Below the pieces are notes generated by a model, which did not search any database, was not told the DNA's origin, and was given only the letters and a program-made list of their open reading frames with translations. Source: a virus. Taken from it: 32,000 nucleotides of DNA. The DNA is taken from IMG/VR virus record IMGVR_UViG_3300045988_175865, positions 30,001 through 62,000 of that record; one strand, given 5' to 3'. Shown here piece after piece: positions 1,050 to 23,649 of this stretch; position 1 is the stretch's first letter, and each line of letters opens with the position of its first letter. The position numbers and the translations under genes were made by a program.

Positions 1050-2438
1050 TTAAGTATTATCATCCTTTTGATATATAATTAAATCACTTGTAGTACGACT
1101 ACAGGCTACATATTGTAACTGCCGAAGTTCTTCTTTATTTGTACATCTCCAGATATTCTCCATATCTATCATTACAATAGAATATTGAGATGACTGTGAT
1201 TTATGAGTTGATATACAATATCCATAATCTAGTGATTTACGTTTAATTATCCTATTATCGTATCTTATATCAAAAGTAGTTAAAAATGATTCTGATAAAT
1301 CATAATATTTACGCCATAAAGCATTAACTCTTTTTTTATATACATTATTCTTATCAGCATTAACCGTAGATAACCTAAGTCATTCTAACCTATAAGCTAG
1401 ATTATTAATATTTTTTTCTGAATTATCTTTAGATAATACTATTACTTTAAAAGTAGAATCATCTGATTTTAACCCTAATTCCCAAGCATTTAATTCTAAA
1501 TACTTAGTTTTATTTACTGATGTTATAATATAATCACGAGAATTTTCTATTTTTAATCCTAAATAGTTAGTTGTGTCATAACCTGTTAGAACTTCTCCAA
1601 CAACAAATTCTTCTTTATATCCTAAATATTCTCTAATTAATTTATTTAATGCTTTAATTCTATTATTAGTATAAGAAACTAATTTTATTAAATTAGAATC
1701 ACTAAAATCTTTAGATATTTTAAATAAATAACTATACTTTTTAAGCATTTGTACAATATTGTTACATACTGTAATATTAGAATAATCATCAGAAATGCTT
1801 TTAAATTTATATAATGGCTTTTCTCTTAAATAATTTAATACTTTAGATAAACAACTTTCTTTTTGTCTATATATCTTATTTAGATAAATTGTTCTATTAC
1901 TAAATGCTTTAGAAGGTTTATTTTCTTTTACAGAATAAAGCTGTTTAGGATCTCCTACAAATACTATCTTTGATGACTTATATTCTTTTAATAGTAAATC
2001 ATATAGATCACTATTAATCATACTACACTCATCTACAATAAGAACATCATATTTATACACTTGATGTGATCTTTTGAAAGAAGTATCTAAAAATTTAAAT
2101 TCTAATTGTGAAGCATCAAAATTTAATACATTTAAATTAGGTCTAAGATTTAGTAGAGAATGTATTGTTAAAGCTTCTCTTCCTTTCATTCCTTTTGATT
2201 CTAATACTAATTTTGCCTTATTTGTTGGAGCAATAAAAGCAGTCCAGTATCCGTTATCAGCTAATATGTCATATAACATACTAGCAATCATACTTTTAGA
2301 AGTTCCCGCTGACCCAGTTAAACAAATGCAGTGTTCATCACTAGTTATAAAAGAAGTCAAATCGGATAATGCTTTTCTTTGAGCATCGTCCAATCTGACT
2401 TTGTATTCTTTTTCTAATTTATTTATATCATAATTCAT
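1050..2438 (-). CDS. SF1 DNA helicase (Dda/RecD-like)
   Basis: Walker A GSAGTSKS and Walker B LIVDECSM. The C-terminal helicase motif CISTHKSQSSQY is recovered only when TGA 1380-1382 is read through (same frame). True stop is TAA at 1050. Confidence 0.8.
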
Positions 2439-2953
2439 TACTTACCTGTTGATCCAAATCCACCACGAGAATAGGAATCTAAATTATCAACCCATTCAAA
2501 CTTGATTTTAGAAGTAAATAACCACTTAATTTTTTGCCAAATAGTAGCCTTCTGACTTAGTTGAATTCTAAATTGACAAATACGATCTCCCTTTTTAATA
2601 ACAGTACGTTCTAAAGAAATTGCAGGAAATTTCCATTCATCATCATTTCCAGAGTAAGTATTATCGATAATTCCAAGGGAATTAGATTGAACTATTTTAA
2701 AATTCTTAAATGTACTGCTTCGAGGTACTATATGAGCCTCAAATCCTTTTGGAAGAATCATAGCAAATCCGAGTCGTATAAGACAACTATCAAACGACAC
2801 ATCTCTAAATCGCTTACCATTTAACTCATATTGTACCCCAGCTTGCGGTGCTACAAGTTCTATATCTTCGGCTGCATGGAGATCAATCCAATCTCCTTTT
2901 TCAATAATTTCAAATTTACTCCCTTCAATAATTTCTTTAACTTTAATCCTCAT
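2438..2953 (-). CDS. dut: dUTP pyrophosphatase (trimeric dUTPase)
   Basis: 171 aa with GIIDNTYSGNDDEW and the C-terminal motif V SRGGFGSTGK. Stop TAA overlaps the helicase ATG. Confidence 0.85.
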   Translation of the reverse strand: MRIKVKEIIEGSKFEIIEKGDWIDLHAAEDIELVAPQAGVQYELNGKRFRDVSFDSCLIRLGFAMILPKGFEAHIVPRSSTFKNFKIVQSNSLGIIDNTYSGNDDEWKFPAISLERTVIKKGDRICQFRIQLSQKATIWQKIKWLFTSKIKFEWVDNLDSYSRGGFGSTGK

Positions 2954-3314
2954 ATATATGTTTATTTAAATATTTATTTACAACGGATAGTATTTCATGT
3001 AACGTATCCCACTCATCATCATTCAAATCAAGATATCTATCAGATACAAATTCTGCTATATAATCATCATTATATTCGTTATATCTGAAAATTAATATAG
3101 TATAACAATTTTCCTTTGACTTAAAACAGCTTTTGTGTACTCTGATAGAATGAGTTCCGTCTAAATAAAATTCACCTTGTTTTTCAAAATTTGACTCAGT
3201 GCCATAATAACTATTCGGATAATACTTTACAATTTCAAATGAAATATATTTAGGTAATTCTCCAATATATGTACATGGTTTGAATTCTAAATTTTTTATT
3301 CTATATGTTTCCAT
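2943..3314 (-). CDS. hypothetical protein
   Basis: 123-aa ORF, stop TAA, overlaps the dut start by 11 nt. No motif recognised. Confidence 0.5.
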   Translation of the reverse strand: METYRIKNLEFKPCTYIGELPKYISFEIVKYYPNSYYGTESNFEKQGEFYLDGTHSIRVHKSCFKSKENCYTILIFRYNEYNDDYIAEFVSDRYLDLNDDEWDTLHEILSVVNKYLNKHIYED

Positions 3315-3335
3315 ACTTATATCTTAAATAAAATA

Positions 3336-5876
3336 TTAGTTACAACGACTTCAGCCGCAGGACATACAGCTTACACATCCTGAAGTAGCAACCAATGGTT
3401 CCCCACATTCTGGACATACGTTTTTATTATCATGATTGGCATTTATTGAAGGTTTTGTATCTGGAACACTAATCTGCTCTTTTTGAGGAATTTTTACATT
3501 ATCTTTTATAGCTTCTGTAATTACTCTTGATATAATATCTGGGCATGACAAACCATCAATATTAATTTTTCTAGCCTTACATGTACTACAAGCAGGACAA
3601 TTAATTCCTCTTATCTGATCAATTATCTCATCGACTTTAACACCACTTCTAAGATTAAGAGAAATTAATCTTGTTACAGCATTCATGTTAGCTTGACAGA
3701 TACCACCTTTAGATGTATGTGTGAACACTTCTACAAGATTACCCTTATTATCCTTATTGCAAGTTATATATAATGTTCCACATGCACATTTTTTACAAAA
3801 AGTTGCACCATGTGTTGTACCAAGTGTTTTGCGTGAAACTGGTGCAATGGAATCAAATTTGAAAGATTGTTTTTCTTCTTCAACTTTAATAGATTCCCCC
3901 ATAATAGCTGGTCTACTATTTTCCCTAAATATCGTTAACCCTTTTAAACCAGCTTTCCATCCAGCTAAATATAATTTTTCTACATATTCTTGTGATGTAT
4001 CTTTCTTAAGATTAATTGTAGAACTTATTGCTGTATCAATATACTTTTGTAATGCTGCTTGAAGCTTTATACGATCATATGAATCAATATCATATGCTGT
4101 TACAAGAATATCATCATCTATAGAAGAATTAGGAACAGAATCAAGATATTCTTTTACAATTTTAGCATAAACATCATATACCTTTTCTTCTTTATTAAGA
4201 GATACTGTTTTTCTCTGAAATTTCTTCATAAACAGGGGTTCCAAACCGCCCGATACTCCAAGCATAGTTGAAATTGACCCAGTTGGTGCTATCGAAAGTA
4301 GTGAACAGTTTCTAAGACCAAATTTTTTCATTTTTTCAAGTTCATCGCTTGAAAAGGCTTCTTTCATTATACTAGATTCAAATACCTTGTCTGAATAGCC
4401 AGGAAATGTTCCAAGTTCTTTAGCAAGATCATATGAGGTAAATACAGAATTTCTGAAAATAAGTCTCATAATATTTTCTGCAAGTTTTATCGACTCTAGG
4501 CTTCCATATTTAATATTCAATTTTATAAACATATCATGAAGTCCCATAATTCCTATGCCAAGGTTTCGGTATTTAGCAATTTGTTCTTGTTGTTCCTTAA
4601 GAGGGTGGTTATGAAGATTTTCATCTATAATCCTATCCATTTCCCTAACAATAATCTTTATATCTGAAACTAGTTCAGAATAATTAACTGTTGCAAATTT
4701 TGTAAAAGGATCTTTTACATATTCAGATAGATTTATTGAGGATAAGTTACAGGACATATTTTTTGGCAAAGGTTGTTCCTATATATTACCTATTTAGCTT
4801 TTTATCTAGATATTCTGGAAGTTTCCTTCATACTCTTTATTGCCATTAGAGATACGTCTGTCAATTCAGACCAGTTTAGCATATATTTTCACTATAAAGT
4901 GTTGGGCACTCTTGGTGGAATTATATTTATTCATCCACTATGCGTTACAATGTTTCATAGCCTATTCGTAATCTATGAAATTATCTCGGTATTATCATGC
5001 AATAATTTGTTTAGACTTCACCGATTTTACCCAATTTTTTACATGAGGCAAACAATACAACTAACTGATAACCAGCCATTTACTACCACATGGATTACTA
5101 GTATCTATTTGATACTCAGTAATATACTCCATCAAATTATAATTTCTGAATCTATTCATAAACATGACTCCAGGCTCTGCATGTTCATATGCATTTTTCA
5201 TCATAAGTTTATAAATTTCAATTGGAGTTATATCATAATCAGGATATCCCTTAAACTTAGATTTAATATGAAGGGTTATAACTTCTCCTGTCTCATAAAA
5301 CTTATCTACGGCATTCATAAAGTTATCATCAACTTCCACAGAAAGGTTTGCATTATTGATCTTTCCAAGATTGCTTTTAATAGTTATGAAATCTTTTATT
5401 TGTGGATGATCTGCTGAAAGAGACATCATTAATGCGCCTTTACGTGATCCACCCTGAGAAACAGAAGCAGTTACAGTATTAAATATCTCCATAAATGGAA
5501 CAATACCATCTGTTTCATATCCTGAAGAAAGTTTTGATCCTTTTGGACGAATATCAGATAAAGATAATCCTTGACCTCCCTGAGCTTTGAACGTTAATCC
5601 TATATTTTTTGCCGTTTGAAGAATATCATCAAGATTATCTGCAATTTTACCAGACGAGTAGCAATTTGAGTACGAAGCCTGTCTGTCTGTTTGTCTGTTT
5701 GATAGAGTTCTTCCTCCAAATAAGAACTTTTTAGCAACAATTAACTTTCTTAGTTCTTCATTTCCACCACTAACTCTATCAAACCACTCGTCTAAAGACT
5801 CATTATTATATCTATACTTTTTATTTCAAATATCAATTCCTAATTGATCATTATTAAGCCATTCTTCAACAGTCAT
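3336..5876 (-). CDS. nrdJ: class II (adenosylcobalamin-type) ribonucleotide reductase, split by a group I intron (exon 1 5085..5876, exon 2 3336..4778)
   Basis: N-terminus MTVEEWLNNDQLGIDIW(TGA 5826-5828)NKKYRY. Other motifs: QGGQGLSLSDIRPKGS and SQGGSRKGALM. Joining the exons restores the catalytic motif TSNPCG|EQPLPKNMSCNLSSINL. Cys-rich tail CPECG...SGCVSCMSCGW(TGA 3351-3353)SRCN, then TAA at 3336. Confidence 0.85.
4779..5084 (-). ncRNA. group I self-splicing intron (ORF-less) in nrdJ
   Basis: 306 nt separate NPCG from EQPL. The 5' exon ends in U (GGT|) and the last intron nt is G (4779). The segment has stops in the exon frame. It shares sequence blocks with the other introns: 4877-4892, 4938-4949, 4984-5000. 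Confidence 0.75.
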
Positions 5877-5899
5877 ATATTATATACTTAATTAATAAT

Positions 5900-6451: not shown

Positions 6452-6452
6452 A

Positions 6453-7493
6453 CTAAACAAATATAATATCATCGGAATAATAATTCATCTCACAATATGC
6501 AACCATCTTAAGAAGTTTACAAAATTCTTTACGCCCTTGTTCTAGTACCTCCTTGTTAATTGGGTATACTCCAACACTATTAGTAGATGTAGTTTCAACA
6601 ACAATAACATTACATTTTACAGTTCATTCTTCTGAATTGTATCCATACTTTTTTTCACAATATCTAAGTAGAACTCAAATATAATATGCGAATTGTCTTG
6701 AATAAGAAAATATTTCAAATGATCCACCAGGTTCCATAAATTGATATAATAAATGACCTGTTGTTTTTAAATCATTTAAGGTGATAATTTTATTTTCAAG
6801 ATCAATTGTTCAATTATCAGCTTTCATTTTAAGCTTAAGAGTATGTTGATTACCATTATAAGATGCGTTTATATCAATAAAGAATGCTTCCTCATTATAT
6901 GTTTCAATAGCATCTCCAAAGATATCAGTAGGATATAATAGATTATTTACTTGTCTATTAGAATTAAGATTATTAATACACTTTTCTACTGTATCTCGAT
7001 CCTTAGATGATAGAATAATAGTATTATTATCTGTTATAAGTTTAAGATTATAGTAATATCTAAACCCATCTTTAATAATACTTTTTATTCTAGAAGGGGT
7101 TAAGCTTAATTCATAATAATGTATCTTTCCACAAGCTTCTACTATGGCACTATATATAGGTAGATTCTTTTTTCGTAGCTTAAATATTTCATCAATTACC
7201 AGTCCTAACTTAGCTGAGGGTTTACCTATGTCTGGGCCTAAAGTAAAGACATCTTTCTGGAGTAGTAGTTCATGGATTGCACTGCCAATACTTAATGATA
7301 TTGTGGTTTCTCCAGTAAATCCTTCTTTATATTTGCTTGGAGACCCATTTTGATTAGGATTAATCAACTTTAAACGAGAATTTGATATATAGTTGGTATA
7401 TTTACTTGAAAAATATTCCTCATCAGACATTTTCTCACGACGGACACTTTCTAAATTAGGAGATAGTTTTATATCATTTAAATTAACTGTCAT
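6453..7493 (-). CDS. PD-(D/E)xK exonuclease (Cas4/RecB-like phage recombination nuclease)
   Basis: Track ORF 6810..7493 continues in frame through TGA at 6810, 6675 and 6624 to TAG at 6453. The extension carries ITLNDLKTTG (D-x-K core) and SRQFAYYIW, as expected for this fold. Confidence 0.6.
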
Positions 7494-7582
7494 AATGTTT
7501 TATAAAGTGGTACTTATTATTAGAAATACCCATAAGAACTTTGTTAGCTTCTTCTACTTTATATTGTGAAACTAAATTATAT

Positions 7583-7828
7583 TTAACTTTCAAGTTTCCT
7601 TTTTGGTCTATCATCTTCTATCTTTGTATCTCCTGTTTTATTCATATTAACTAAAGCAGTTAAAAATAGCTCGCATAGTCTCGCAGAAAGACCTAAATTT
7701 GCTTTTAAATCTGTGATTTTTGGTTCAAAGGAAGGTTTATAGTCCAAGTTTCCTTTATCGTCTAGACTAAAATCTAGAACGATTTTCTGTCCTGTGCTGT
7801 GAATAAATTCTACTTTACAAGTTTCCAT
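7583..7828 (-). CDS. hypothetical protein
   Basis: 81-aa ORF, stop TAA. Its start overlaps the end of the upstream gene. Confidence 0.45.
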   Translation of the reverse strand: METCKVEFIHSTGQKIVLDFSLDDKGNLDYKPSFEPKITDLKANLGLSARLCELFLTALVNMNKTGDTKIEDDRPKRKLES

Positions 7829-8234
7829 ATTTCTTAATTAATTCATAAAAAAAATCTTTCGGTATCATAACCACTTCTCCAACTGACCTAAATGTAGACT
7901 CTGTTGGTTTAATTTTTTTTCAAAAGATAACAAATGGTTTATCTTTAAAAGGACATGAGTTTAAAATTCCAAAATAATCTGGAGTATTAATAGTTGCTTT
8001 TAACTGAGGATTAAAAAATAGTTTATTTTCAACATCAACTAAATCAACCTTTCTATCATCCATACTTTTACTTTCTGATCTAGAGGTAACAACACCTGTA
8101 AAACCAAGGTCTCGTAACTCTTTTGCTATCTGTACCTCATAAGCATTTCCTCTAGCTCTATTCCTCTTTAAATTTCTTGATTTCTTCTCTTTCCCCCTCT
8201 GATTTTCCTTTAATATATTCTTTTGCGCTTTCAA
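7815..8234 (-). CDS. resolvase-like PD-(D/E)xK nuclease (Hjc-like pattern)
   Basis: Basic N-terminus, then GNAYEVQIAKELRDLGF...DDRKVDLVD...NPQLK, an E...D...(D/E)xK layout. Continues through TGA 7920-7922 to TAA at 7815. Confidence 0.5.
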
Positions 8235-9195
8235 TTAGACTAACAGTTTTATCATGTTTATATTTGGCATAAAAGTCAGATATATCTTTAGCTTTATATT
8301 CTCAAGGTATTCATATTGGAATAACTTCAGGGAATTTCTTTTTAATAGATATCATTGCTCTCAATCCTGGACGATCATTATCATATAATAAGATTATATG
8401 TTTAAATCTTTCTTTAAGACGATGATATTGAGCCTCAGATAAGAAACAATTTTCTGATATTGGGGCTATTGCGGGAATTCCTAAATTATACAATGTCATT
8501 ACATCTTTTAATGACTTAGTAACAACAAGATATTCTCCCATTTTTGGTAACATGTGAGATCCTTGTAGTCTTAGTGATTTTCAATTAGATATAAATTTAT
8601 ATTTTCTATTATTAGGGAAATAAATCCGTCAACGTTCAATATCTTCTCTTATACCTCCATAATATCCAAATACTAATTGTTTATCTTTAAACAAATGAAA
8701 CAAATTATTATTAAGGAATACATTTTTACAAGAAAATACCTTGAACTTGTTTAGTGTTCGCAAATCAATACCAAACTTAGCCCATCAATCTAACTCATAT
8801 TGTTCGAAATCTTTTATTTCAACTTGAATAATAGCATCAGTAGTATCTTCAAGTTTTGTATTAGAATACTTAATCTCCTGCGGTATATTATTTTGTCTGG
8901 GAATTAAACCTATATCACTTGCAACTATGTTTAATGCCTTATAATACCCACAGCCATATTTATTCATAACCACATATACTCAATCTCCGCAATAATTACT
9001 TCCAAAGTCTTTTATAATAATCCTACCCATGCGATTTTTATAATATGCTACAGTAGGTTTTGAATCGTTTCTTACTTTAGACCTAAAAAGACCCTTTTTT
9101 ACAGGTTGCCCATAATAAGTATACATTAATGTTTCTTGAGAAACCTTAGATTCAATTAAATCTCTAGTTATAACAGCAGGAAACTTGTATTCCAT
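8158..9195 (-). CDS. DNA primase (TOPRIM domain)
   Basis: Track ORFs 8980..9195, 8785..8973 and 8311..8553 are all in one frame. They fuse through TGA at 8980, 8785, 8629, 8581, 8311 and 8302, ending at TAG 8158. TOPRIM signature EYLVVTKSLKDVMTLYNLGIPAIAP...ILLYDNDRPG. Confidence 0.7.
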
Positions 9196-11190: not shown

Positions 11191-13735
11191 TTAAAAACTA
11201 AATTTATTTTTATTTCTGATATCTTTTACTTCTGTATCTTTTACAGTTGCATCTTTTATTTCTTTTTCTCTTCATGAAAGATAATCTTCATAATTTATTT
11301 CATCAGATTTAGGTAAAGGATAGAACATACCAATACTACCTTTGAAAGCAGACATGATAATTCTATTAGAAATACCATATCTATTTTTAAGAATAATAAT
11401 AGATCTACAAATATCTTGTAAACCATATCCTTCGTTATCATCCATTATTTTATATCCTCTATAACTTTTTAGTTGGGTTTTAAATGGACTAAATAATGCA
11501 ATACAAATATCAGCAGCTTGTAATGGTTCACCTGACTGTTGAATTTCATCCGCAGTAGGCTCTTCCATACCAGCTTTTCTCCTATCCATAGTTGTACTAT
11601 TTCTATTTTCTTGCATTATAATATCAAAACTAGTCTGACATAGTTCTCTAAATCTGACACAATAAGTTGATATAAGATCCATTTCTTCTTTTTTAGTTCT
11701 CCCTTTTTGAGGATTTACTAAAAGTAAATGATCAATAACAACATTAACTATTTGATTAGGATTATTTGGGGTATATATAGTTCTTTTTCCATCAGGACTT
11801 TTTTGAAAGGTTCCTAAACTTTTGTGGAGTTCCATCATTTCTGCATAAAAAGAATCTGCAGAGAGCTGTTTATCATATATAATAAACTTATGACTTATAG
11901 ATTCTAATCACTCACGAGCTTCAATTACATACTTATGTATATCATCTGGTAACTTATTAGTAAATGACATTAATTGCATATATGTAACTTCAATACCATA
12001 AGTTTCATATAAATATAAGCTTAATAATTTCGCCAACAATGTATTAGCACTTAGTTCAAGAGAAAAATAAACTATAATTATATCTTTATCTGGATAATCT
12101 TTTAAAATACGATATATATCTGTATATATAACAAAAGAGCTTTTCAATTTGTTATCTTACTTGCTTTTTATCAAGTAATTCTTATAGTTTCCTATAAGTT
12201 CAGCATATATTTTCATCTCTTTGAGATGTCGGATACTCTTGGGAAAATTATATTCTGTATAACAGGTTCATTTCCTATGCGTTACAATATAAAATAACTG
12301 TTAAATTACTTTATTATCTCGGGGTTAACATGCTTATATACAAAATTTGGATAATTATTCTGTACATATAGTTTAGCCTTCTCCGATATTACCCGATCAT
12401 TATCTCTAAAATCACTTTTAGAGACGGCAAAATTATGATTTTTAAAACACAAATATCTATAATATTTCCTATTTAAATAAATTGTAGAATTTTCATAAAT
12501 TCACTGTAAAAATTTAATACTATTATTTATATTACTTTTTATATCAAATATTAGATCACTTGTTTTATTTGCAACATATCATGTTCATGAAGTATTTGAA
12601 TATACTTCTATATTTTGTAAAATATTTTTAGTTCCAACAATACAACATCTTGGTTTAAAAATATTTTTACTACCTCCATAAGATAAACATCCATCACCAT
12701 CAAAATATCCTCTAATAAAATGTCTTATTAAATCTTTAGATTTAAAAATATTTTCATCAGGAAATTTTAAGACATAACTTTTATTTGGAACACATCCTTT
12801 TTCTATTAGAGCATCTTTAATATGTTTACAAGAAATAGCAAATCTACATCGTTGCAATTTATTATCAGTTCTTGGTAATCTGAAAATATTTAAGGCACTA
12901 TATAATTTTTCTAGATGTTCAATATCATCAATATGTAAATCACATGAGATATGGTAAGAATTTGTAGAAACATTACCATCAGCATATAAAAATCCCAATC
13001 AATATGCTTTTGTTTCTGTGTCTATTACATCAAAAAATGATTCATTTACTGTTTTACGATTTAGGTTGAAATTATGTTTTTTTAGAAACTTTGAAATAAC
13101 ACAACCTTGAGTATTATATAATTTACCTATTTCTTTCAGAGACATACCGTTATTAAAACAATCAATCATATTTTTTAAATCATTTAATTTAAACGTATAT
13201 GATATCCTATTACTTTTATGTGATAAATAAATTCCGCATCGTTTAAATAAATTACCTAATGCAGCAGATGTACAATTGCACAATTTAGAAACAGATTTAA
13301 GTGATATTTCAGGATTTTCATGAAATTTACATAAGGCTTCTTTAACTTTTACATCATTTACTTTATGTTTTCTAACATTCTTAAAATAAAAATCTAAAAG
13401 AATTAAATCTACAGCTTGTTTTGAAATATTTAATTTGTTGGATATTTCAAATGAATTTAAATTTTGTTTTCTTAGTTCTATTATTTTGTTTATCATAGTA
13501 AAAATTATTTTAATTTTTACTACAAAAATAACGCAATTTATTTATATTTACAAATATCTGCGTTGGAAATTATTAATGTTTTACCAACACTACTTTTGCT
13601 GAATATTAACTTATATACACCCTTTTTAAATCCTCCAGTATAAAAATCCAATTTTAAAAGTCCTGTTTTAAGACCTATATTTTTACCTTCTCGCCCGTCT
13701 TCTATTTTAGAATATAATTCACCTACCAAACTCAT
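11191..13735 (-). CDS. DnaB / T7 gp4-like replicative helicase, split by a group I intron (exon 1 13583..13735, exon 2 11191..12144)
   Basis: Exon 1 reads ...GLKTGLLKLDFYTGGFKKGVYKLIFSKSSVG. Joining to exon 2 completes the P-loop as SSVG|KSSFVIY. Exon 2 passes through TGA at 11908 and 11272 to TAA at 11191. Confidence 0.75.
12145..13582 (-). mobile_element. group I intron with LAGLIDADG homing-endonuclease ORF, inserted in the helicase P-loop codons
   Basis: The 5' exon ends GGT| and the intron ends ...GATAACAAATTG| (G at 12145). Core blocks at 12201-12216, 12275-12286 and 12317-12333 are shared with the nrdJ and ferritin introns. The ORF is in a different frame from both exons. Confidence 0.7.
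12306..13496 (-). CDS. LAGLIDADG homing endonuclease with N-terminal HTH repeats (intron-encoded)
   Basis: Track ORFs 12999..13496 and 12585..12998 are in one frame. Motif 1 is KAYW(TGA 12999)LGFLYADGNV and motif 2 is IRGYFDGDGCL. The frame continues through TGA at 12585, 12579 and 12501 to TAA at 12306. Confidence 0.8.
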
Positions 13736-14340
13736 TAAGCAGTTGTATAAACATCATAAGTACTGGTCTTACCTTGTATTCCCTTTATTTTCATTTCTTC
13801 AAATTCGTTTCACTTACAAGAAGCAACAAATTCAATAATAGGAATATGAATAAGATCGTTCATCTTAGCTCATTCTAATATTTCTAATACTTCTCGATGT
13901 TTACTTATACTATGTCCAATAGTTGATGCGTATCAAAAATAAAATTCTTGTAGGTCTCTAAATTTCTTAGAAATATTCTTTAAACTTACAATCTTACCAT
14001 TTAGATACAACGTTGTTGGATATGCATCCATTAACTCTTGTCCTAGTTCTCCAGTTAATTTGAAATACTGTTTAATAAAGTTTTGATTAAACTCTATTTC
14101 ATCAGGATCATAACAATTAGGATTATAATTTTTCTTAATAATACCTTTATCTTTGAGAGAATTAAATAAACTTTTTAATCGTTTATTACCACCGCCGTCA
14201 TATCATTTTTTGAAATAAATACGATGCTCTTCGGGATTTCCATTCTCCGTTTGTGCAATAAAAGTTAAATATATTAACAAAACTTCATCAGCTGTTAACT
14301 GATATTTAGTCATAATATTTAAAATCGTATCTAACTTCAT
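13735..14340 (-). CDS. hypothetical protein (position suggests a helicase-associated or loader role, unproven)
   Basis: ATG 14340-14338 to TAA 13737-13735, 201 codons, with four in-frame TGAs (for example 14203-14205). Invisible in the standard-code ORF track. The stop overlaps the helicase ATG (TAATG). Confidence 0.55.
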
Positions 14341-14388: not shown

Positions 14389-15612
14389 TTAAAATCTATG
14401 CTCTATATCTATTATGCCTTTTTTGGGTCTAGTAGAAATTTCACCACCTTTTAATATAACATCTAACTGATCCTCAGTAATAGTTATATAAGATTGATTT
14501 TTATTAGCATTATTATACCAAGTTTCTTCTATAGAACCTGCAATCACTAATGTAAAAAACTCTGCAACTTTATTTTCTTCAGCTCTGATCACACGGCCAA
14601 TACGTTGTAAATCAGTCACTTGAGAAGAATTACAAGTTAAAGCTATACCTACAGATAATCCTCTAACATCGACACCAGCATCTAAAGCTTTAGGAGAAAC
14701 AATATTAGCAATATCTAATTGATTAAATGTTTCAAGAATTATCCTATTCTCCTTTTTCTTTTTCTGACTATGCAATACTAAAGCTCTGGATTTAAATAGC
14801 TCTGCATCTTTTACAGTAGCAGTAAACAATATACATTTCTTGTCTCGTCTAAAGTCTAGAATTTTATTTGCAACTTCAAACTTTTTAGGATGAGTCATGA
14901 CAAAAGTTTTTCTTAGCTTTAAGTATTTCATAAACTGAGCTAAGTAACCTCTTGTAGCATTATCACTTTTCCCATATTTTTGGGCCCAAATTTTCACTTT
15001 TTTGGGTGATTTGACTAGCTCCATCACCAGTTTAAAATCGTGATTAAAATAAGCAAATAATTGTTGGAATTTAGCATTATACTCTCAATATTTCTCCATA
15101 TCAACATGTAGAAGAACTTTATATTTTCTGTATGAAGATACTCAGTTATTTTCTAATGCTTCTTGTAATGTAATTGTATCACAAACGGACATAAACTGTT
15201 CAAGATATTTTTCACTTCCGTCTAGACGAGTTCAGGTTGCAGTTAATCCTAAAAGATATTTATATTCTACACAGTTATAGATATTGATAAACGTTGGACT
15301 TGCAGATAAATGACATTCATCTACTACTAATAGGTCAACTTGATATTGCTGTTTAATGATAGTATTAAATATTTCTACTTTACAGATAGAAAAGAGTTGG
15401 TTTTTAGCCAACTCTCTATTTCACTGTTCTTTCAAAACATCTGTTGGAACAGCAACTAATACTACGATGTTAGGATTATGCTTATATAACGATTTAATAA
15501 CCATTATACTACCATTTGTTTTACCTGTGCCAGTAGCCCATTCAAGTACACCTCTACCACCACTATCAATTCAGCGTCTTATACCTAATTTCTGACGTTC
15601 ATCTCGGTTCAT
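14389..15612 (-). CDS. SF2 (DEAD/DEAH, ResIII-type) DNA helicase
   Basis: The N-terminal half is recovered with five in-frame TGAs (the first at 15571-15573). Motif I is ATGTGKT, motif II is VVDECH and motif III is GLTATW. Motif VI QRIGRVIR is in the track ORF 14389..15027. Stop TAA. Confidence 0.8.
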
Positions 15613-15648: not shown

Positions 15649-16494
15649 CTACTCTTTACTTGTCTTTTCGAATATTGGTAATGAAATATTTCTTGCTTCA
15701 GCCACTCGTTGAATATTAGACATTAAAGTATTCCACTTATTTATATGATAATTTAAATCATTATCTAGTAATAATAATATTTTATCTCTTAATGTCTTTA
15801 GTGCTATAGTTGACAATGATGTTATCTTAGGTAAAGAGGTAAGCTGAACTAATGAACGAAATTCAGAAAAAGATAATCCTGTTGGACTAACTCGAAGTTT
15901 AATATCAGGATTCAAACATAATCTTTCCTTAATTACTTCCATTCTGTTACGTACTCTACCATTACTATCGACTTCAGTTAACTCAACTTTTTCATTATCC
16001 GTTAACCAGATTCCCTGTGCTAAAATAAACTTATCAGTAATCATTTTCTTATTTAAAATATCAAGTTTATCAAAACAAGCATCCATGAGACGACTAACAG
16101 TTACCTTTTCAAAAATAGGCTCAAGTCCGTTAAATAGAACTGAAATAGATTCATTAAGTATATCCTCTTCATGGGAGGATCTTTGACTATTTATATAGTC
16201 AAGAATATCTTTCTTTGTTTTTATATCAGTGTCGCAGTCATGTAAAAGATATCTTACAAATAACTCTGTATTACAAGCATCCCATGTTTTATGAATATTT
16301 TCTCGAACGACATATTTGCCAGGGGACCATGGATATGCATTGTATAACATCTCATAACAGTGCTTATATCATTTCCTAATATCCTCTTCAGGAGCTGTCA
16401 TAAGTTTTACATCGTTACCACTTTTATCTTTCCACGTTAATGATTCAATAGAATCCATTGCATTTTGCAATTTTTCACCAAATTCTGTACACAT
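15649..16494 (-). CDS. hypothetical protein
   Basis: Track ORF 15649..16350 extends upstream through TGA 16369-16371 to ATG 16494-16492. Stop TAG. Confidence 0.55.
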
Positions 16495-17600: not shown

Positions 17601-17606
17601 AACTTT

Positions 17607-17975
17607 TTATATTTTAAACCCTCCGATTGGAAGGGAATAAATATTATATATTTTGTTGTTAATCTCTATATAATATCTATAAGAGTTAAAGATATTAATA
17701 CAATAAAAGAAATCATTCTTATACTTAATATCACTAAGATAAAAACCTGATTCCTCAGGATTACTAAGGAGGTTTATATCAAATTTTAGAAGATATGGTG
17801 GCAAGATATTCACATTACTAACTCTAAAGACTATTTTTAGTCCAAAACTAGAGTTGAATTTAGTTTTTGGTACATATGCTAAAACCCCCATTCCAATATT
17901 TAAACAGGCTTTAATATAATTAGGATCGTTTCTGTAGACAATTATGTTATGCTGTTCGAGCTCCAGTATAGACAT
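17607..17975 (-). CDS. hypothetical protein
   Basis: 122-aa ORF, stop TAA. Its ATG lies 1 nt downstream of the ferritin TAA (TAATATG). Confidence 0.45.
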   Translation of the reverse strand: MSILELEQHNIIVYRNDPNYIKACLNIGMGVLAYVPKTKFNSSFGLKIVFRVSNVNILPPYLLKFDINLLSNPEESGFYLSDIKYKNDFFYCINIFNSYRYYIEINNKIYNIYSLPIGGFKI

Positions 17976-17976
17976 A

Positions 17977-19628
17977 TTAGTCTATGTCCCCCTTATAGGC
18001 ATTCATAATAGATTTTTCCTTTCTAAGCCAAGAGCCCTCAGTTTCTGCTATATCTAGAACAGTACGGCTAATAGATTCTTCTTCTCAATTTTGTTATCGT
18101 ATAGCTTTTTATCTATACTTCTTATACTTCATTTTGTATAAGCTCAGCATATATTTTCACCTTCAGCATTATCTGTTAAGGGTAAATCACTCGTGGGTTT
18201 ATTTTATTCTAATCTGTTATTAATATTTTATAATTGTATATAGCGTTGTATACCTGTTTTGGAAGTATATTTTTATATTTGTTAGCATATTCCTTTAAAC
18301 AAGTTTCTTTCTCTTTCTTATATGCTCTAAATGCTTCTTCAATTGTAGAAAAAGTTCCTATATGTTTTTTCTTATTCATATAATTAATTTGAGCAATTAT
18401 TTTATTGTTTTTGATTCTGACTCCTATTGGAGTATTACCTCTACATTGAAATCTTCAAGTAATAGCAGTATTAATTTCCTTTGGGATAAAACAACAATAA
18501 TTTGGAGAATAAATTTTATTCCCCTTTACCAAGAAATCTTTATCTATAACAAATGATTCGTTATAACAATTATTATAATATCAATCCGCAAAATTCTGAA
18601 AATTTAATCATTCTTTACAAACAGTAACTCCATTTCCTCCATAGTTATTATATTCAGAAACTTTTGGACAATAACATCTTCCAATCATTTCTTTCCAAAT
18701 TTTATAACATCGAGTTTGTTTACCGTTTTTGTCCCTAGAACTATATTGACCTACTCCAAAATAACCTGTATTGTATACAGACGGATAATAAGGATCTTTA
18801 ACAGAGCCCTTTTTTAGATTACCTAGTTCAGCAGTAATAATAGTACCTGTTTGTAAAAATTTTATTATTACATTATATGAATCAATATATTCTAGAATGA
18901 TAAAATCTCCAGAACTATTTGAAGTCATAATTTTATTTTCATAAATTTGTTTGTTATTTGTCATATATCATAATATTTTAATTAAACATAGTACAAATAT
19001 ACAAATTCTTTTTCAGACTCACAAACAAATTAGGTTCAAAACCTATGCGTTACACTGACTTAATATATTACTATTAAGTTTAGCACGGTATTAGCATCTC
19101 AGCCTTCACCGTTTTTGATTTATTCTATTCTACTTATTTCTAAGCAGACAGGCAGAATTCTACCTGCTCGTTCACTAACATTCCTGTCTCTTTATTATGC
19201 CCGTTCAACCAGTTGAAAGTAGCCCAATCACCCTCATTAGCTGCCTGATCAACAATTTCATTAATCATTTGAGTAGTTTCAATTTCAAGATCTACGGTAA
19301 TCTTAAAAGGATCTACCATATCTTCTACTTTCTTATCAAACTGCTCAATAGTAGGATAAATATACTCTGCATCGTTTTCATTTAAATATTTACGAATCCA
19401 GGAATGATGTAAGTATTCTTCATCTGCTCTTTGTTTGTAATACTCTTCAAGAATAACAAATCCTCTAACACCAAAGTAATTTGCAAAATTCATATACGCA
19501 TTATGATTTTGCAATTCATGCTTAAGCTGACGAAGAAGTAGTTTTTGAATTTCAGCACTTAAAGTGCATTCACGCCTACTAACATCCTTTTTTTCTACAG
19601 GATCATTTGCCTCATTTTTAATTATCAT
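17977..19628 (-). CDS. ferritin-like di-iron protein, split by a group I intron (exon 1 19162..19628, exon 2 17977..18085)
   Basis: Ferroxidase-type residues appear in ELQNHNAYMNFANYF...ADEEYLHH...EIETTQMINEI. Joining the exons gives ...MLVNEQV|EEESISRTVLDIAE..., matching the bacterial ferritin segment VSEQHEEEKLF. Stop TAA at 17977. Confidence 0.7.
18086..19161 (-). mobile_element. group I intron with HNH/AP2-like homing-endonuclease ORF, inserted in the ferritin gene
   Basis: The 5' exon ends ...CAGGT| and the intron ends ...GATAACAAAATTG| (G at 18086). That 3' end is nearly identical to the helicase intron's. Shared core blocks are at 19083-19098, 19043-19054 and 18145-18160, with the ORF inserted between the last two. 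Confidence 0.7.
18209..18964 (-). CDS. intron-encoded homing endonuclease-like protein (degenerate HNH plus AP2-type DNA-binding domain)
   Basis: Track ORF 18608..18964 continues through TGA at 18608, 18581 and 18455 to TAG at 18209. Sequence: YKIWKEMIGRCY...VCKEW-LNFQNFADW-...IDKDFLVKGNKIYSPNYCCFIPKEIN...GVRIKNNKIIAQINYMNKKKHIGTFSTIEEAFRAY. The last stretch is an AP2-like pattern. Confidence 0.65.
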
Positions 19629-19665
19629 AAATTAGGTAATTTAAAGTATAAAACATTTCTGCTAT

Positions 19666-20028
19666 CTAGTAAATATGGATCCTATAACTCTCCTTATGAA
19701 AGTTAAAGTTAAATTGATTTTCTAATAACCAGTAAATATCAGAATATATTGTGAATTCATGATTATTAATTACAAATCTAAGATAAAAACTATCATAAGT
19801 AGTTAAATACCTAGTAATATCTTGTTCATTAAAATAGATAATATTTATACCCTCAAGTTCAATACCTAGATTCTCAAACTCTACTGTAAGTTCTTCACTT
19901 CCACAAACATCAATGATAGATAAGTACCTGTCAGTTTTTTTGTCAAATCCATCAATATACCCTCTCATGTGATTAACACAAGGATACCAATGATTACCAA
20001 CTCTTTTCAAAGTTAATTTCTTTTCCAT
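19666..20028 (-). CDS. hypothetical protein
   Basis: 120-aa ORF, stop TAG. No motif recognised. Confidence 0.5.
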   Translation of the reverse strand: MEKKLTLKRVGNHWYPCVNHMRGYIDGFDKKTDRYLSIIDVCGSEELTVEFENLGIELEGINIIYFNEQDITRYLTTYDSFYLRFVINNHEFTIYSDIYWLLENQFNFNFHKESYRIHIY

Positions 20029-20030
20029 AG

Positions 20031-20474
20031 TTAATTCTGTTTAATATCTTCCTTTGGATTGATTACTGTTGCAGCAATATTAGCATAACAATCTGCAAGT
20101 TCATTAAATTTATTATTATTGTGGCCTTTTAATCAAAAGAACTTTACTTTATGAAAGTGTAATAGATTAACTATTTTAACTCATAGATCCATATTCTTCT
20201 TTGAATTATCTTGCTCTGCAATTCATCTATATACATGACCATTGTTAATACTACTAACAATATAACTTGAATCAGAATATATTTCTAAATTCCTAGGTTC
20301 CTTAAAATATTCTAAGGAGTATAGAACTCCCATTAATTCTGCTCTATTGTTAGTAGTATGTATATAACCTTGATATAAAATCTTAATTACTTTGTTGTCC
20401 TCAGTAATTATAGAGGCATAACCCCCTTGGTCTGTTGTTGGTTTGTAACTTCCATCAGTATAGATTCTAATCAT
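20031..20474 (-). CDS. rnhA: ribonuclease HI
   Basis: Sequence: MIRIYTDGS...GGYA...TNNRAELMG...IYSDSSY...RW-...NMDLW-...VKFFW-LKGH...NELADCYA. The three W positions are TGA codons at 20223, 20181 and 20133. Stop TAA at 20031. Confidence 0.8.
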
Positions 20475-20625
20475 CAATAATTTCAGCATCGTCAAACTCA
20501 ATAACTCTTATAGTTCCCTTAAAGGCAGCCTCTCTAGAAACTAGAAAGTTATTAAAATCTTCTATAAATGCATCTTTGTTTTTATCTTCTATACTAATAT
20601 AACCATTAAAAATGATGTCAACCAT
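20467..20625 (-). CDS. small hypothetical protein (52 aa)
   Basis: ATG 20625-20623 overlaps the upstream TAA (TAATG). MVDIIFNGYISIEDK...EIIDD, stop TAG at 20467, overlapping the rnhA start. Too short for the ORF track. Confidence 0.3.
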   Translation of the reverse strand: MVDIIFNGYISIEDKNKDAFIEDFNNFLVSREAAFKGTIRVIEFDDAEIIDD

Positions 20626-21005
20626 TACTCAACAAAATAATTGGAATTAAAAAGCTTAGGATTATGTCTTTTTAAAAGTTTCTTCTCCTTTTCTATCATA
20701 ATACTCATGACTTCATCAGCATAGTCATTTCTACGACCTCCAAAGTTTTCAATAACATGAAACGGATTCTCTAAAGCATTACGCTCAGCAATCTTTCGAC
20801 CAATAGCTTTATTAAAGTTATCTACAGGCTGACATACTGCAAGTCCAAACTTAATAGTATGACTATTATCATCATAAACTGCAGCTATAGTATACCTACG
20901 ACATGGTTTAACATCATAAACAACAGTTTTCTCAATAATAGGATTCACAGAAACAGTGCCTTGATATACAGGAGCACTGTAATAATACTTAACTACTCTA
21001 CTCAT
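20625..21005 (-). CDS. hypothetical protein (pattern reminiscent of the N4 gp49 / Sf6 gp66 family)
   Basis: 126 aa with FGLAVCQPVDNFNKAIGRKIAERNA. The family assignment is from memory of the motif only. Confidence 0.45.
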   Translation of the reverse strand: MSRVVKYYYSAPVYQGTVSVNPIIEKTVVYDVKPCRRYTIAAVYDDNSHTIKFGLAVCQPVDNFNKAIGRKIAERNALENPFHVIENFGGRRNDYADEVMSIMIEKEKKLLKRHNPKLFNSNYFVE

Positions 21006-21042
21006 ATCTTTCTTATTTTTTTATGATTTACATTTTAAATTG

Positions 21043-21291
21043 TTACTTCCTAGAAAGCTTACACCTCCATTTTTCTAGATTTTTACCAAATCTAGCATCA
21101 AATATATAATCACAGTAACTATAATCATTAACTATTGTTCTAGGATTAGGAATATTACAATCAAAGTCTTTATCTTGAAGTTTAAAAAAATTACTTTTTA
21201 AGTAATTCTTTATTCTTCTTTTAACAATTCGATGATAAATATTCTTTATACCTTTATCCTTGTAAACTGGAACCTTATAACTCTTTGACAT
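21043..21291 (-). CDS. hypothetical basic protein
   Basis: 82-aa Lys/Arg-rich ORF, stop TAA. Confidence 0.4.
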   Translation of the reverse strand: MSKSYKVPVYKDKGIKNIYHRIVKRRIKNYLKSNFFKLQDKDFDCNIPNPRTIVNDYSYCDYIFDARFGKNLEKWRCKLSRK

Positions 21292-21313
21292 ATTAAGATA
21301 ATATTAAATATAA

Positions 21314-21817
21314 TTAAGTTACTATATTTTTCATAAATGATATTCTAGCAATGTTTCGTAAATCACTAGATAATACTTTAACAACTATATCTTGTCGGCC
21401 ATTTCTTTGATAATAAGTATATAAAGACCTAGACTTATCTATACTCTTATTTGTTACCTTAGAATCAATTAGTTTAATTATGTCAGTTCGTCTACATACA
21501 ATTCAATCTTTCTCTCCTTCAAATGCTATATAATCAGCCTTTCCAAATAGTCATCCAGGATTTCCTCGAACATTTTTTAGTTCTACTCAGTTGATATTAT
21601 AATCTGGAGTATTATCAGCTCTACGATTTTTTTTTGCGCTCTTGATGTCAAATGTAAAAGTTCTATTATTATATGTTCATATAATATCAATATGATCATA
21701 CATATCTTGATACTTAGATGGAATCTGAACAGTTCCTCCAACCTGAGATAGTAACAATTCAGAAAACTCAGATTCTTTTATCTTTCCTAATTTAGAGCAA
21801 TCTATATATTTATTCAT
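21314..21817 (-). CDS. PD-(D/E)xK nuclease-like protein
   Basis: Start MNKYIDCSKLG at 21817. The frame passes through TGA at 21677, 21587, 21551 and 21503 to TAA at 21314. YDHIDII-W-...FTFDIKSAKK has a D...D-x-K layout. Confidence 0.5.
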
Positions 21818-22073
21818 AATTGTGACCCCATTTTTCAGCTTCTTCAAATGTACTAAAAACAAGATATTCTGGAATCATTGTTACTATATCTTCAAAAGCA
21901 TAAAATATATGAGGACCAGAATCTAAATATGAGACTATAATATCCTTAACTGTTCTAGGAGTAGTATCTACAGTATAAGTATCTACAAAAACTCCTGCTT
22001 CAAATTGATGGGTCTTTTGACAAATAAATACTGTCTGCCCAATATCAAATTTGGTTTCTATACTAATTTTCAT
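21810..22073 (-). CDS. hypothetical protein
   Basis: 87-aa ORF, stop TAA. Confidence 0.45.
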   Translation of the reverse strand: MKISIETKFDIGQTVFICQKTHQFEAGVFVDTYTVDTTPRTVKDIIVSYLDSGPHIFYAFEDIVTMIPEYLVFSTFEEAEKWGHNYE

Positions 22074-22074
22074 T

Positions 22075-22683
22075 TTAGTTATCTATTATTTCAATATATC
22101 TCTGTTTAGGAGTAGTAACGTAAGGATTTTGATCTATAATAATAACTTCTATAACAGTATGTTTTCTAGTAAACCATCGTGGTAGAAACCATTTTCGTGG
22201 TTTAATAGGTTCTTTATGAGAACTTAGAGTTATATACTTTTCATTATTATACTCATTACTTAAAGCTATTGTTCCTGGATAGGAAAGGTGTAGACAACTT
22301 CTGTTTCATTTATCTACAATACAAGTATCTAACACAAACCCAGGTTCTCTAAATATTGTATCTCTAATAACAATAGTATCTTTCTTAGAAAAATGTTCTA
22401 ATTGATATTGTAACGCTTTAATTTTATTATCCTTAACTTTGTTCTCATTAGCTACTTTTTTCATTTTAAGCATTAAAGAATCGCTAAAGTATTCTAATTG
22501 CTCAATTGAAAGCTTAAATACACGATTACTTTCTTTTAATCATGAATTTTCCGCAGCATATGCTTTTTCATTATTTATAGAATTATCTAACGCAATATTC
22601 AGATTTCTAATTTTATTGGTCATAAAAATTATAGCCAATACAAGTAAAGTATAACTTAATATTCTTAAAATTATTTTTTTCAT
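22075..22683 (-). CDS. membrane-anchored coiled-coil protein
   Basis: ATG 22683-22681 overlaps the upstream TAA. The N-terminus MKKIILRILSYTLLVLAIIFM looks like a signal anchor, followed by a heptad-like region. There are two in-frame TGAs (for example 22540-22542). Stop TAA at 22075. Missed by the standard-code track. Confidence 0.55.
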
Positions 22684-23036
22684 TATATTAATTCTCTGTT
22701 AAAAGTTGAAACTACAAAACTTCGGAATAGAATTAAATCTTCTAGAGCATTATCTAACGATGCTACTTGTTTTTTAACTCTTAAATATTTTTCAGTAATA
22801 ATTTGTATAATATTTTTAATATCTCTAATAGAACAAGGATCGTATTCAAACATACATAATCTTCTATTTAAAACACCAATAGGCTCATTTGTTAAAATTA
22901 TAGGAATTCTCTTGTTAGATTGAATTTTTATAACAAAAGGAATAGATCCAAGGTCTACTAATAATTTTAGATATCTTATATCTACATTATTTGGAAATAT
23001 AAATCCTGCCTGTTTAAGATTTCTAGTAATTAACAT
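22683..23036 (-). CDS. hypothetical protein
   Basis: 117-aa ORF, stop TAA. Confidence 0.45.
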   Translation of the reverse strand: MLITRNLKQAGFIFPNNVDIRYLKLLVDLGSIPFVIKIQSNKRIPIILTNEPIGVLNRRLCMFEYDPCSIRDIKNIIQIITEKYLRVKKQVASLDNALEDLILFRSFVVSTFNRELI

Positions 23037-23041
23037 AGTAT

Positions 23042-23073
23042 TAAAAAATAAGGCATTAGAAAACTAATGCCTT
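23042..23073 (-). terminator. rho-independent terminator
   Basis: Perfect 10-bp stem aaggcattag / aaaa / ctaatgcctt (23050-23073). It is followed on the minus strand by AUUUUUU and lies directly after the HNH gene stop. Confidence 0.6.
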
Positions 23074-23079
23074 AATATT

Positions 23080-23649
23080 TTATTGTTTATTAACAGTGTA
23101 TCCATGATGTTCTAAAACTAGTTTACATAAGTTTAAGTACTCTTCTACAGTTAAATCACTTTTAGAATAATTAGCTGCAGGAGTTGTAATACCTAAATTT
23201 GATAAATCATTCGACCCGCCTTTAGAAACTGGTATTATATGATCAAAACAATAATCATCTTTTTCTAAATCAATAGGAGTGCCTGTTAAATAGCACTTTG
23301 TTTTTGTGCCAAATTTATTAATAATATCTAAAGTCTTAATTTTATTTAAACTCTTCATTCCTCTATTTTGAAAATGTTCAATATATCTCCTTAAACGTTT
23401 ACGTCATGTTCTATTAGAGATTCTTCTACATCCATGAGAGATTCTAGCACAAAAAGTACATAGTCTAGATTTAATTCTCCCCTTAAGTGTATTACGTCAT
23501 AATGAAGTAGATTTTCGTTGTTTACTATTAGTTATATCATTACAATAATATCCAACAATACTTTTGCTACATCCAAGTATCTTAGCAATTTCATTATAAC
23601 TTTTATTATCACTTCTTAAAATAAGAATTTGTTCCTTTAACTTACTCAT
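23080..23649 (-). CDS. free-standing HNH endonuclease with N-terminal HTH
   Basis: ATG 23649-23647 lies 14 nt after the tRNA 3' end. HTH is SYNEIAKILGCSKSIVGYY. Two in-frame TGAs at 23497-23499 and 23404-23406. HNH core is CFDHIIPVSKGGSNDLSNLGITTPAANYSK. Stop TAA. Confidence 0.75.

Follow-up and report, generated by a model that had tools for sequence, protein, structure and literature searches.

The replication region of the viral record IMGVR_UViG_3300045988_175865 raises the question of how genes that are repeatedly interrupted by in-frame TGA codons can be translated into complete proteins. This question was addressed in positions 30,001-62,000 of the record, a stretch of 32,000 nucleotides referred to here as the window; counts cover window positions 1050-23649 unless otherwise stated. 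Open reading frames (ORFs) were called with only TAA and TAG as stops, and each gene was opened at its first ATG. Called in this way, the recognisable genes of the window all lie on the minus strand, which their ORFs tile almost without gaps. Judging from the comparisons described below, the window is very probably the replication and nucleotide-metabolism block of a Zeta crAss-like phage that reads UGA as tryptophan by means of its own tRNA(UCA), the gene for which is split by an intron.

The block spanning 1050-23649 on the minus strand comprises 35 genes for replication, nucleotide metabolism and homing endonucleases, with 45 TGG codons. A recount found exactly the 43 in-frame TGA codons that an initial annotation of this DNA had reported, spread over 20 minus-strand genes, and its tallies for individual genes were reproduced without change: superfamily 1 (SF1) helicase, 1; the ribonucleotide reductase gene nrdJ, 1 in each of two exons; exonuclease, 3; the ORF at 7815-8063, 1; primase, 6; DnaB, 2; a LAGLIDADG ORF, 4; 13735-14340, 4; superfamily 2 (SF2) helicase, 5; 15649-16494, 1; an HNH-like ORF, 3; RNase H, 3; 21314-21817, 4; 22075-22683, 2; and the HNH gene, 2. 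As had also been proposed, TGA is the only codon that breaks these frames, with no gene interrupted by TAA or TAG, and read-through ends at one of those two codons, which terminate all 42 complete genes (TAA in 29, TAG in 13, TGA in none). When genes were re-called with TGA as a sense codon instead of with code 11, the fraction of the minus strand contained in ORFs of at least 80 amino acids rose from 0.747 to 0.933 in positions 1-23706, and remained at 0.924 in positions 23707-32000. Treating TGA as sense merged nine pairs of open stretches, each 50 codons or longer, versus two pairs for TAG and one for TAA. Homology runs across the TGA codons, and the defining Pfam domains of several enzymes lie 3' of them, in agreement with the suggestion that catalytic motifs are reached only by read-through: Helicase_C in the SF2 helicase (residues 244-344), Toprim in the primase (225-308), UvrD_C_2 in the SF1 helicase (405-455) and PD-(D/E)XK in the exonuclease (216-336). 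The in-frame TGA pattern is real and far above chance, and annotation with code 11 loses or fragments a quarter of the region.

The amino acid inserted at these codons was assessed with protein queries in which TGA positions were masked as X, so that the alignments remained unbiased. In the RNase HI gene (20031-20489, minus strand), the three TGA codons fall at conserved Trp positions, including that of the DLW motif, as the initial annotation had claimed: in alignments with RNase HI structures, X89 is opposite W in the Chlorobium enzyme 3h08, X103 (the DLW position) is opposite W in all five alignments shown, which represent four distinct RNase HI proteins, and X119 is opposite W in E. coli RNase HI. 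For the SF2/SNF2-type helicase (14389-15612, minus strand), three of the five TGA codons occupy invariant-W columns among 120 homologues; columns 14, 64 and 157 hold W wherever a residue is present (96, 114 and 119 homologues, respectively, the rest being gaps), column 127 holds F, L or W, and column 176 is variable. In the helicase of Flavobacterium phage FpV4, which uses the standard code, the residue at column 157 is no more than aromatic and a W lies near column 64; at 27% identity, this protein is too distant for a firm comparison. A search of the PDB with the primase returned no match, and the PDB alignment obtained for NrdJ left outside it the N-terminal TGA, the DIW-NKKY example of the initial annotation.

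Since recoded relatives are the source of many of the SF2 helicase homologues, syntenic relatives were also compared at the DNA level, at amino acid identities to the window of 65-80% (L001) and approximately 45% (L004 and L005). Window TGA codons were found opposite TGA or TGG at 28 of 33 positions in L001 and at 16 of 24 in L004, with ten of them opposite an unambiguous TGG in at least one relative, and all three TGA codons of the PD-(D/E)XK exonuclease (DUF3799-like; 6453-7493, minus strand) lie opposite TGG or TGA in relatives. The reverse case, a window TGG opposite TGA in the relative, occurs ten times in L001 and seven times in L004. Substitutions at window TGA positions were mostly F, Y, L, M, V or C, with one Gly and no Ser. 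The interchange between TGA and TGG is that predicted if TGA encodes Trp, and glycine (code 25) is thereby excluded. Taken singly, the TGA at codon 469/473 of nrdJ is ambiguous, as read-through adds only the residues WSRCN; these complete the C-terminal tail CX2C-X10-CX2C-X2-C-X4-C with its sixth cysteine, which is expected to be required in class II ribonucleotide reductases. The assignment of TGA to Trp put forward in the initial annotation is thus supported by the RNase HI structures, the helicase columns and the codon exchanges in relatives.

A decoder for these codons had been claimed in the form of a matching tRNA(UCA) encoded in the same DNA. Such a gene exists, at 24101-23664 on the minus strand; it lies just outside the coordinates given for the TGA-using block and is split by an intron. 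In the whole window, ARAGORN reported no tRNA at default settings and, at relaxed settings, only noise without a tca anticodon, and Rfam likewise reported no tRNA. The gene surfaced only when the 464-nt gap between the amidoligase and HNH genes was searched alone, in which Rfam placed a group I intron match between two tRNA halves. Both programs missed the tRNA(UCA) because a 346-nt group I intron separates U34 from C35. The 5' exon (24069-24101) contains the acceptor strand GCGAGCT, the D arm, A26, the stem strand GCGGU and C32, U33 and U34; the ORF-less intron occupies 23723-24068, within the anticodon loop; and the 3' exon (23664-23722) continues with C35, A36, AA and ACCGU, followed by a linker, an extra arm, a 4-nt loop, the T arm, the acceptor strand and G73, with no encoded CCA end. 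Joining the exons after U34 yields the loop CUUCAAA with anticodon UCA, and ARAGORN at default settings calls the resulting 92-nt RNA, spliced in silico, as a tRNA with anticodon tca.

The intron scores only 18.5 bits (E = 0.023) against the Rfam model RF00028, under its gathering score of 50, and its group I label consequently rests on an ensemble of features. At the 5' splice site, U34 forms the P1 wobble pair with a G of the conserved guide sequence GGAGC(A)C; at the 3' side, UUG is paired in P10 with CAA, the first bases of exon 2, and the intron ends in AAG, and thus in a terminal G, in ten of ten homologues. The core R/S motifs AGACUAAA and GAUAUAGUCC are present, and a P9 hairpin with a GAAA loop lies on the 3' side, its stem covarying across the ten homologues (TAGT/ACTA, TAAT/ATTA, CAGT/ACTG, CGTG/CACG, CGAC/GTCG, CAAT/ATTG and CGAT/ATCG). 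The introns of five related loci were not recovered by Rfam at E<=0.01. A scan for the predicted spliced junction identified many intron-less genes. The in-silico spliced L121 gene is identical to the intron-less L159 and L161 genes, and spliced L093 differs from L187 at a single nucleotide. These precise presence/absence pairs, in which the host gene is intact, validate the splice junction, since natural intron-less alleles match those spliced in silico. On this combination of features, the anticodon-loop insertion is classed as a group I intron, and it is predicted to be self-splicing. Some introns of this family hold, directly after the 5' splice site, either an ORF of approximately 150 residues, which resembles PD-(D/E)XK enzymes by eye alone, or an HNH ORF.

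The mature tRNA, 92 nt long, would fold into five helices. The fifth is an extra arm in variable position, GUAGGG-CUCCAAA-CCCUAC (23692-23710, minus strand), which separates the UCA arm from the T arm and whose loop copies the anticodon loop of tRNA-Trp(CCA). This five-helix architecture is common to 23 distinct sequences from viral and metagenomic contigs. In their alignment (A1), 96.8% of cells are paired and compensatory changes occur in 17 of 26 pairs, a level reached by none of 500 shuffles. In the extra arm itself, covariation is seen at four of five pairs and the UCCAA loop hardly varies; the invariance of the UCA arm is uninformative, since the search pattern had fixed it. G73 is invariant and A1-U72 is present in 18 of the 23 members, with an acceptor that is mostly AGGGGxx, as in bacterial tRNA-Trp; the window tRNA differs from the family in this respect, with acceptor GCGAGCU and G1-U72. 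The 5' part of the tRNA matches annotated tRNA-Trp genes of Bacillus phages. Two features of canonical tRNA-Trp are lacking: the decoding arm carries U34 C35 A36, with CCA found only in the extra-arm loop, and a fifth helix of 5-9 bp takes the place of the 4-5 nt variable loop of the class I fold. Single-armed tRNA(UCA) genes exist too, for instance in the relatives L004 and L005, so the extra arm is not obligatory. Around two-armed tRNAs elsewhere, TGA-joined ORFs are only mildly raised, at 2.45 per 10 kb versus 0.73 for TAG and 1.5 for TAA. Phage contigs with a two-armed tRNA bear arrays of up to approximately 17 tRNAs, and two of them also encode a transfer-messenger RNA scoring above the gathering score (L121 7560-7977, 79 bits; L093 8707-9130, 74 bits).

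The tRNA gene stands at a boundary in codon usage. Within the window, the genes transcribed before it, an eight-gene block at 24171-31118 on the minus strand that is compatible with the standard code, have 0 TGA among 21 Trp codons, all TGG, and those transcribed after it have 43 among 88 (Fisher p=7.8e-6). A further 10 kb upstream, available in the near-identical contig L192, is almost TGA-free and holds seven ordinary tRNA genes; in total, the 22 genes upstream of the tRNA contain 5 TGA and 45 TGG codons. Downstream of it, individual genes show a bimodal distribution of TGA use (permutation p=5e-5). Avoidance of TGA is maintained in the same genes in L001 (amidoligase, 0/7 vs 0/8; ferritin-like, 0/3 vs 0/3; metallophosphatase, 0/4 vs 0/3). 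This partition agrees with a published proposal in which genes required ahead of the suppressor remain readable in the standard code.

The phage matches the Zeta group of crAss-like phages in the gene set of its replication block (DnaG primase, DnaB and SNF2 helicases, AAA ATPase, dUTPase and ribonucleotide reductase, with Thy1 just downstream), in size (contigs carrying these genes are 166-193 kb long, with approximately 30% GC), in intron density and in opal recoding; the large terminase subunit (TerL), major capsid protein (MCP) and portal genes and the crAss transcription block lie outside the window and its retrieved flanks. The nearest cultured relatives of the SF2 helicase belong to Flavobacterium, Bacteroides and Cellulophaga phages, and a motif resembling Bacteroidota promoters, TTTG-N19-TAtcTTTG, is located just upstream of the tRNA (24125-24155, minus strand) and is also present in L001. 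These sequence comparisons suggest that the host is likely a Bacteroidota bacterium using the standard code. Minus-strand matches to the more general pattern TTTG-N17-23-TAnnTTTG at 13523-13554, 18994-19025 and 24125-24155 precede, respectively, the LAGLIDADG ORF, the HNH-like ORF and the tRNA; their total is not above chance, and the promoter motif is not enriched across the window (4 found vs 2.3 expected).

A scheme that would account for these observations begins with a phage that has reassigned UGA from stop to Trp in about half of its genes. Its decoder would be the phage tRNA with a UCA anticodon, a Trp-type anticodon arm and discriminator G73. The 346-nt group I intron would be transcribed within the tRNA gene, and its self-splicing between U34 and C35 would have to precede the appearance of a functional suppressor, which the tryptophanyl-tRNA synthetase (TrpRS) of the host, presumably a member of the Bacteroidota, would charge with Trp. 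The TGA-free genes upstream of the tRNA could be translated by host ribosomes unaided, and the downstream genes, in which TGA and TGG are mixed, would need the suppressor, so that the partition may mirror the timing of expression. Several observations weigh against this scheme. A LicD-family gene upstream of the tRNA (L192 2226-3104) has four TGA and one TGG, and TGA-free genes (ferritin-like, metallophosphatase, AAA_24 and dUTPase) are found downstream of it; because the two classes interleave in this manner, a simple division of the map into early and late parts is over-simplified. Both Rfam intron scores in the window (18.5 bits here and 23.3 bits for the nrdJ intron) are below the gathering score of 50, the long extra arm and G73 could in principle attract seryl-tRNA synthetase (SerRS), and the host assignment draws on matches of 27% identity and on one promoter-like motif with no statistical enrichment.

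It is highly unlikely that the phage instead mirrors a host that natively uses code 4, for instance a Mollicutes-like bacterium, with no code switch driven by the phage. The GC content of the window (24-33%) is typical of code-4 organisms, and TGA is never a stop in 42 genes. In such a host, however, TGA would not be expected to be confined to 20 of 43 genes, nor to be so scarce upstream of the tRNA, with none in the eight-gene block and five against 45 TGG in the 22-gene region. Borges et al. reported in-frame TGA in approximately 90% of genes for phages of code 25 hosts and in 26-71% of genes for recoded phages of standard-code hosts. Moreover, the tRNA(UCA) is encoded by the phage, the nearest relatives infect Bacteroidota, and the hosts predicted for Zeta crAss-like phages are Bacteroides, Parabacteroides and Prevotella (PMC12386605).

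A second alternative accepts the locus and reinterprets its product: were the UCA arm to be removed together with the intron, the extra arm would become the real anticodon arm and the locus would yield an ordinary tRNA-Trp(CCA) and no dedicated suppressor. In silico, deletion of 24075-23711 does produce a perfect 71-nt cloverleaf with anticodon CCA, and the 4-nt stretch after the second arm resembles a class I variable loop. The numerous intron-less genes, nevertheless, hold both arms contiguously, which argues that the two-armed RNA is the gene product. The 5' splice site of group I introns also requires a U, and it is U34 that pairs with the conserved guide sequence, which A26 cannot do; no bacterial activity is known that would excise the 21-nt arm. 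A plain tRNA-Trp(CCA) with its UCA arm discarded was rejected on the evidence of the intron-less two-armed genes and of the need for U at the 5' splice site, leaving this reading of the locus very improbable.

There is likewise little chance that the tRNA(UCA) delivers an amino acid other than Trp, be it Gly (code 25), Ser, Cys or selenocysteine. SerRS recognises a long variable arm and G73, both of which are present here, and ARAGORN labels the spliced RNA 'SeC' owing to its tca anticodon. Against this stand the TGA codons at invariant Trp columns and their exchange with TGG, with Gly opposite 1 of 33 window TGA positions in L001 and Ser opposite none. The anticodon arm is of Trp type, as is the acceptor of most family members, mostly AGGGGxx with A1-U72 (GCGAGCU with G1-U72 in the window copy), and the RNA has a D stem of 4 bp and a 7/5 fold, unlike the 8/5 fold of tRNA-Sec. 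The phage tRNA(UCA) species assayed so far in E. coli extracts, 13 of 13, inserted Trp (PMC12636597).

The last alternative explains the fragments by pseudogene decay, by errors of sequencing or assembly, or by low-level natural read-through. It has a negligible probability even in a genome with a heavy burden of selfish elements (32 kb contain four intron-like insertions), given that TGA is the sole interruption, with no TAA, TAG or frameshifts, that the fused proteins are as long as their homologues (e.g. 407 vs 405-408 residues), so that the genes are not pseudogenes, that the pattern recurs in many independent assemblies, and that leaky read-through would be unworkable with up to six TGA codons in one essential gene.

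With UGA most probably read as Trp by the intron-split tRNA, the locus can be compared with known recoded systems. Like the window phage, Zeta crAss-like phages (Yutin et al. 2021, PMC7886860; Lera phage paper, PMC12386605) have genomes of 145-192 kb, low GC and tRNA arrays, and share with it a replication block containing DnaG primase, DnaB/SNF2 helicases, AAA ATPase, dUTPase, ribonucleotide reductase and Thy1, a very dense load of group I introns and homing endonucleases, and the use of TGA as Trp, which in the Zeta phages extends to the replication gene PolB and to intron ORFs. Recoding of replication genes, which the initial annotation had implied to be unusual, was already published for this group by Yutin et al., who described a PolB with multiple TGA codons (PMC7886860), intron ORFs with multiple TGA codons are likewise on record for the group, and TGA-to-Trp recoding that includes replication genes is hence already known for Zeta crAss-like phages. 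Borges et al. found recoding of replication genes to be variable. Their code-switch model for the Jade and Agate clades has in common with the window early genes compatible with the standard code, loss of TGA as a stop, a suppressor tRNA located in a standard-code region ahead of the recoded genes, and a preference for TGA in intron homing-endonuclease genes. In their examples, it is mainly the structural and lysis genes that are recoded, and the lysis genes are preceded by a code-change operon (tRNA, TrpRS and release factor 1, RF1), whereas the window tRNA precedes a replication module; neither TrpRS nor RF1 was seen up to about 10 kb from the edges of the window. Mollicutes and mitochondria (code 4) also read UGA as Trp with a U34-containing tRNA-Trp, but in those systems recoding covers the entire genome together with the host machinery, and release factor 2 (RF2) is lost, whereas in the present case it is limited to part of a viral genome and presumably competes with the RF2 of the host.

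Parallels to the tRNA and its intron are more scattered. The cyanobacterial tRNA-Leu(UAA) intron occupies the same site, in the anticodon loop after U34, and both introns are small and of the self-splicing type; the cyanobacterial tRNA-fMet intron encodes the PD-(D/E)XK enzyme I-Ssp6803I, comparable to the possible PD-(D/E)XK-type ORF noted by eye, or the HNH ORF, of some family introns. The difference from bacterial and plastid tRNA introns is that the host gene here is a phage opal-suppressor tRNA. The Lak megaphage paper mentions 'enigmatic' phage tRNA introns, neither located in a suppressor nor classed as group I. Class II tRNAs and allo-tRNAs (Mukai et al. 2017, PMC5389517) share a fifth helix between the anticodon and T arms, and some are nonsense suppressors from metagenomes and phages; unlike these, the family described here has a canonical 7/5 acceptor/T branch, Trp-like identity features and, in place of an arbitrary loop sequence, a conserved copy of the Trp anticodon loop (UCCAA). 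In the open-access papers and preprints searched, no description was found of an arm mimicking the CCA anticodon loop or of a phage suppressor tRNA interrupted by a group I intron. An intron-split, two-armed suppressor tRNA thus appears to be undescribed, and both a suppressor gene that escapes detection because its anticodon loop contains a mobile group I intron and a widespread tRNA family with a conserved Trp-anticodon-loop mimic in variable position appear to be new.

The recoding itself is one more well-documented case of TGA-to-Trp reassignment in a gut phage of the crAss-like type. More is gained from the tRNA, as it offers a concrete and searchable explanation, a suppressor split by an intron and missed by standard tools, that bears on where the missing suppressors of recoded phages are, as does the mimic arm. 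TGA-recoded phages are often without a detectable suppressor tRNA: only 35% of the TGA-recoded genomes of Borges et al. have one, and reassignment and detectable suppressor tRNAs agree poorly among Zeta crAss-like phages, with several 'opal' Zeta genomes listed as having none (PMC7886860; PMC12386605). The authors speculated on divergent tRNAs and left these genomes unexplained, whereas the suppressor of the window was found, intron-split. It is possible, if doubtful, that the UCCAA arm acts as a surrogate identity element for host TrpRS or for a loop-modifying enzyme, with the intron adding a maturation step before the code switch. If so, the parts of a tRNA read by the synthetase and by the ribosome would be separate within one molecule, and a mobile intron in the decoding arm would account for opal-recoded phages that apparently have no suppressor tRNA. 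The two-armed family thereby suggests a testable idea, namely that a host synthetase that reads anticodons charges a tRNA with an altered one, which bears on the evolution of the genetic code and on the engineering of orthogonal UGA-decoding pairs.

The free-standing endonuclease gene that opens 14 nt after the tRNA (23080-23649, minus strand; 2 TGA, 0 TGG) encodes helix-turn-helix (HTH) and HNH domains. Homologous genes (23080-23649 in the window; 459-1334 in L005) directly follow tRNA(UCA) in two phages that are distantly related, only one of which has the intron. The combination of a tRNA-adjacent HTH-HNH gene and an ORF-less intron resembles 'collaborative homing'. As a single query, the HTH-HNH protein retrieved near-identical loci only, with no gain in diversity. 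On the other side of the tRNA, the TGA-free block encodes IMPDH/GMP-reductase-like, RimK-like ATP-grasp, Peptidase_C26 GATase and class-II GATase proteins, together with two ligases, a phiEco32-type COOH-NH2 ligase and Amidoligase_2, a cassette suggestive of a pathway that modifies small molecules, peptides or nucleotides.

Besides that of the tRNA, three of the four intron-like insertions interrupt protein-coding genes of the minus strand. The class II ribonucleotide reductase gene (NrdJ-like, with a TSCPD tail; 3336-5876) consists of exons at 5061-5876 and 3336-4757 and is interrupted at about 5083-4815, following NPCG, by a group I intron that has no ORF and scores 23.3 bits (E = 6.8e-4) against RF00028, under the gathering score. 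In the gene for the DnaB-like helicase (11191-13735), exon 1 extends from 13735 to about 13565 and exon 2, with both TGA codons, from 12144 to 11194; between them, after the Walker A motif, lies an insertion of approximately 1.4 kb that carries the LAGLIDADG ORF (12306-13496) and has no intron match, group I included, in Rfam. A stretch of 73 nt (12143-12215) at the 3' end of this insertion, beside exon 2, has 86-88% identity to Staphylococcus/Mammaliicoccus phages and a Neotoma gut virus and may represent a shared intron core; considered as a candidate for the tRNA, this stretch was rejected. The TGA-free ferritin-like gene (17980-19628) has exon 1 at 19628-19158 and exon 2 at about 18085-17980, the latter corresponding to the last ~35 residues of the L001 orthologue, and is split by an insertion of approximately 1.07 kb with the HNH-like ORF (18209-18964), which matched no Pfam family. 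The remaining replication genes that contain TGA in frame include the RecD/Pif1-like SF1 helicase (1050-2438, minus strand; TGA at codon 354, upstream of UvrD_C_2) and the DnaG/Toprim primase (8158-9195, minus strand).

Where the window has the intron-split class II NrdJ, the relatives L001 (10001-11224), L004 and L005 encode the anaerobic class III enzyme NrdD, so that the type of ribonucleotide reductase is exchanged within one syntenic block. In a related phage contig (L103 10453-10528), a match to the c-di-GMP-I-GGC riboswitch comes close to the threshold (54.5 bits vs a gathering score of 59). Just past the left end of the window, between two ORFs of L193, a further probable group I intron (14403-15018) displays the motifs AAUUGCGGGAA, CCGCAGCCAAG, GUUCACAGACUA and AAGAUAUAGUC.

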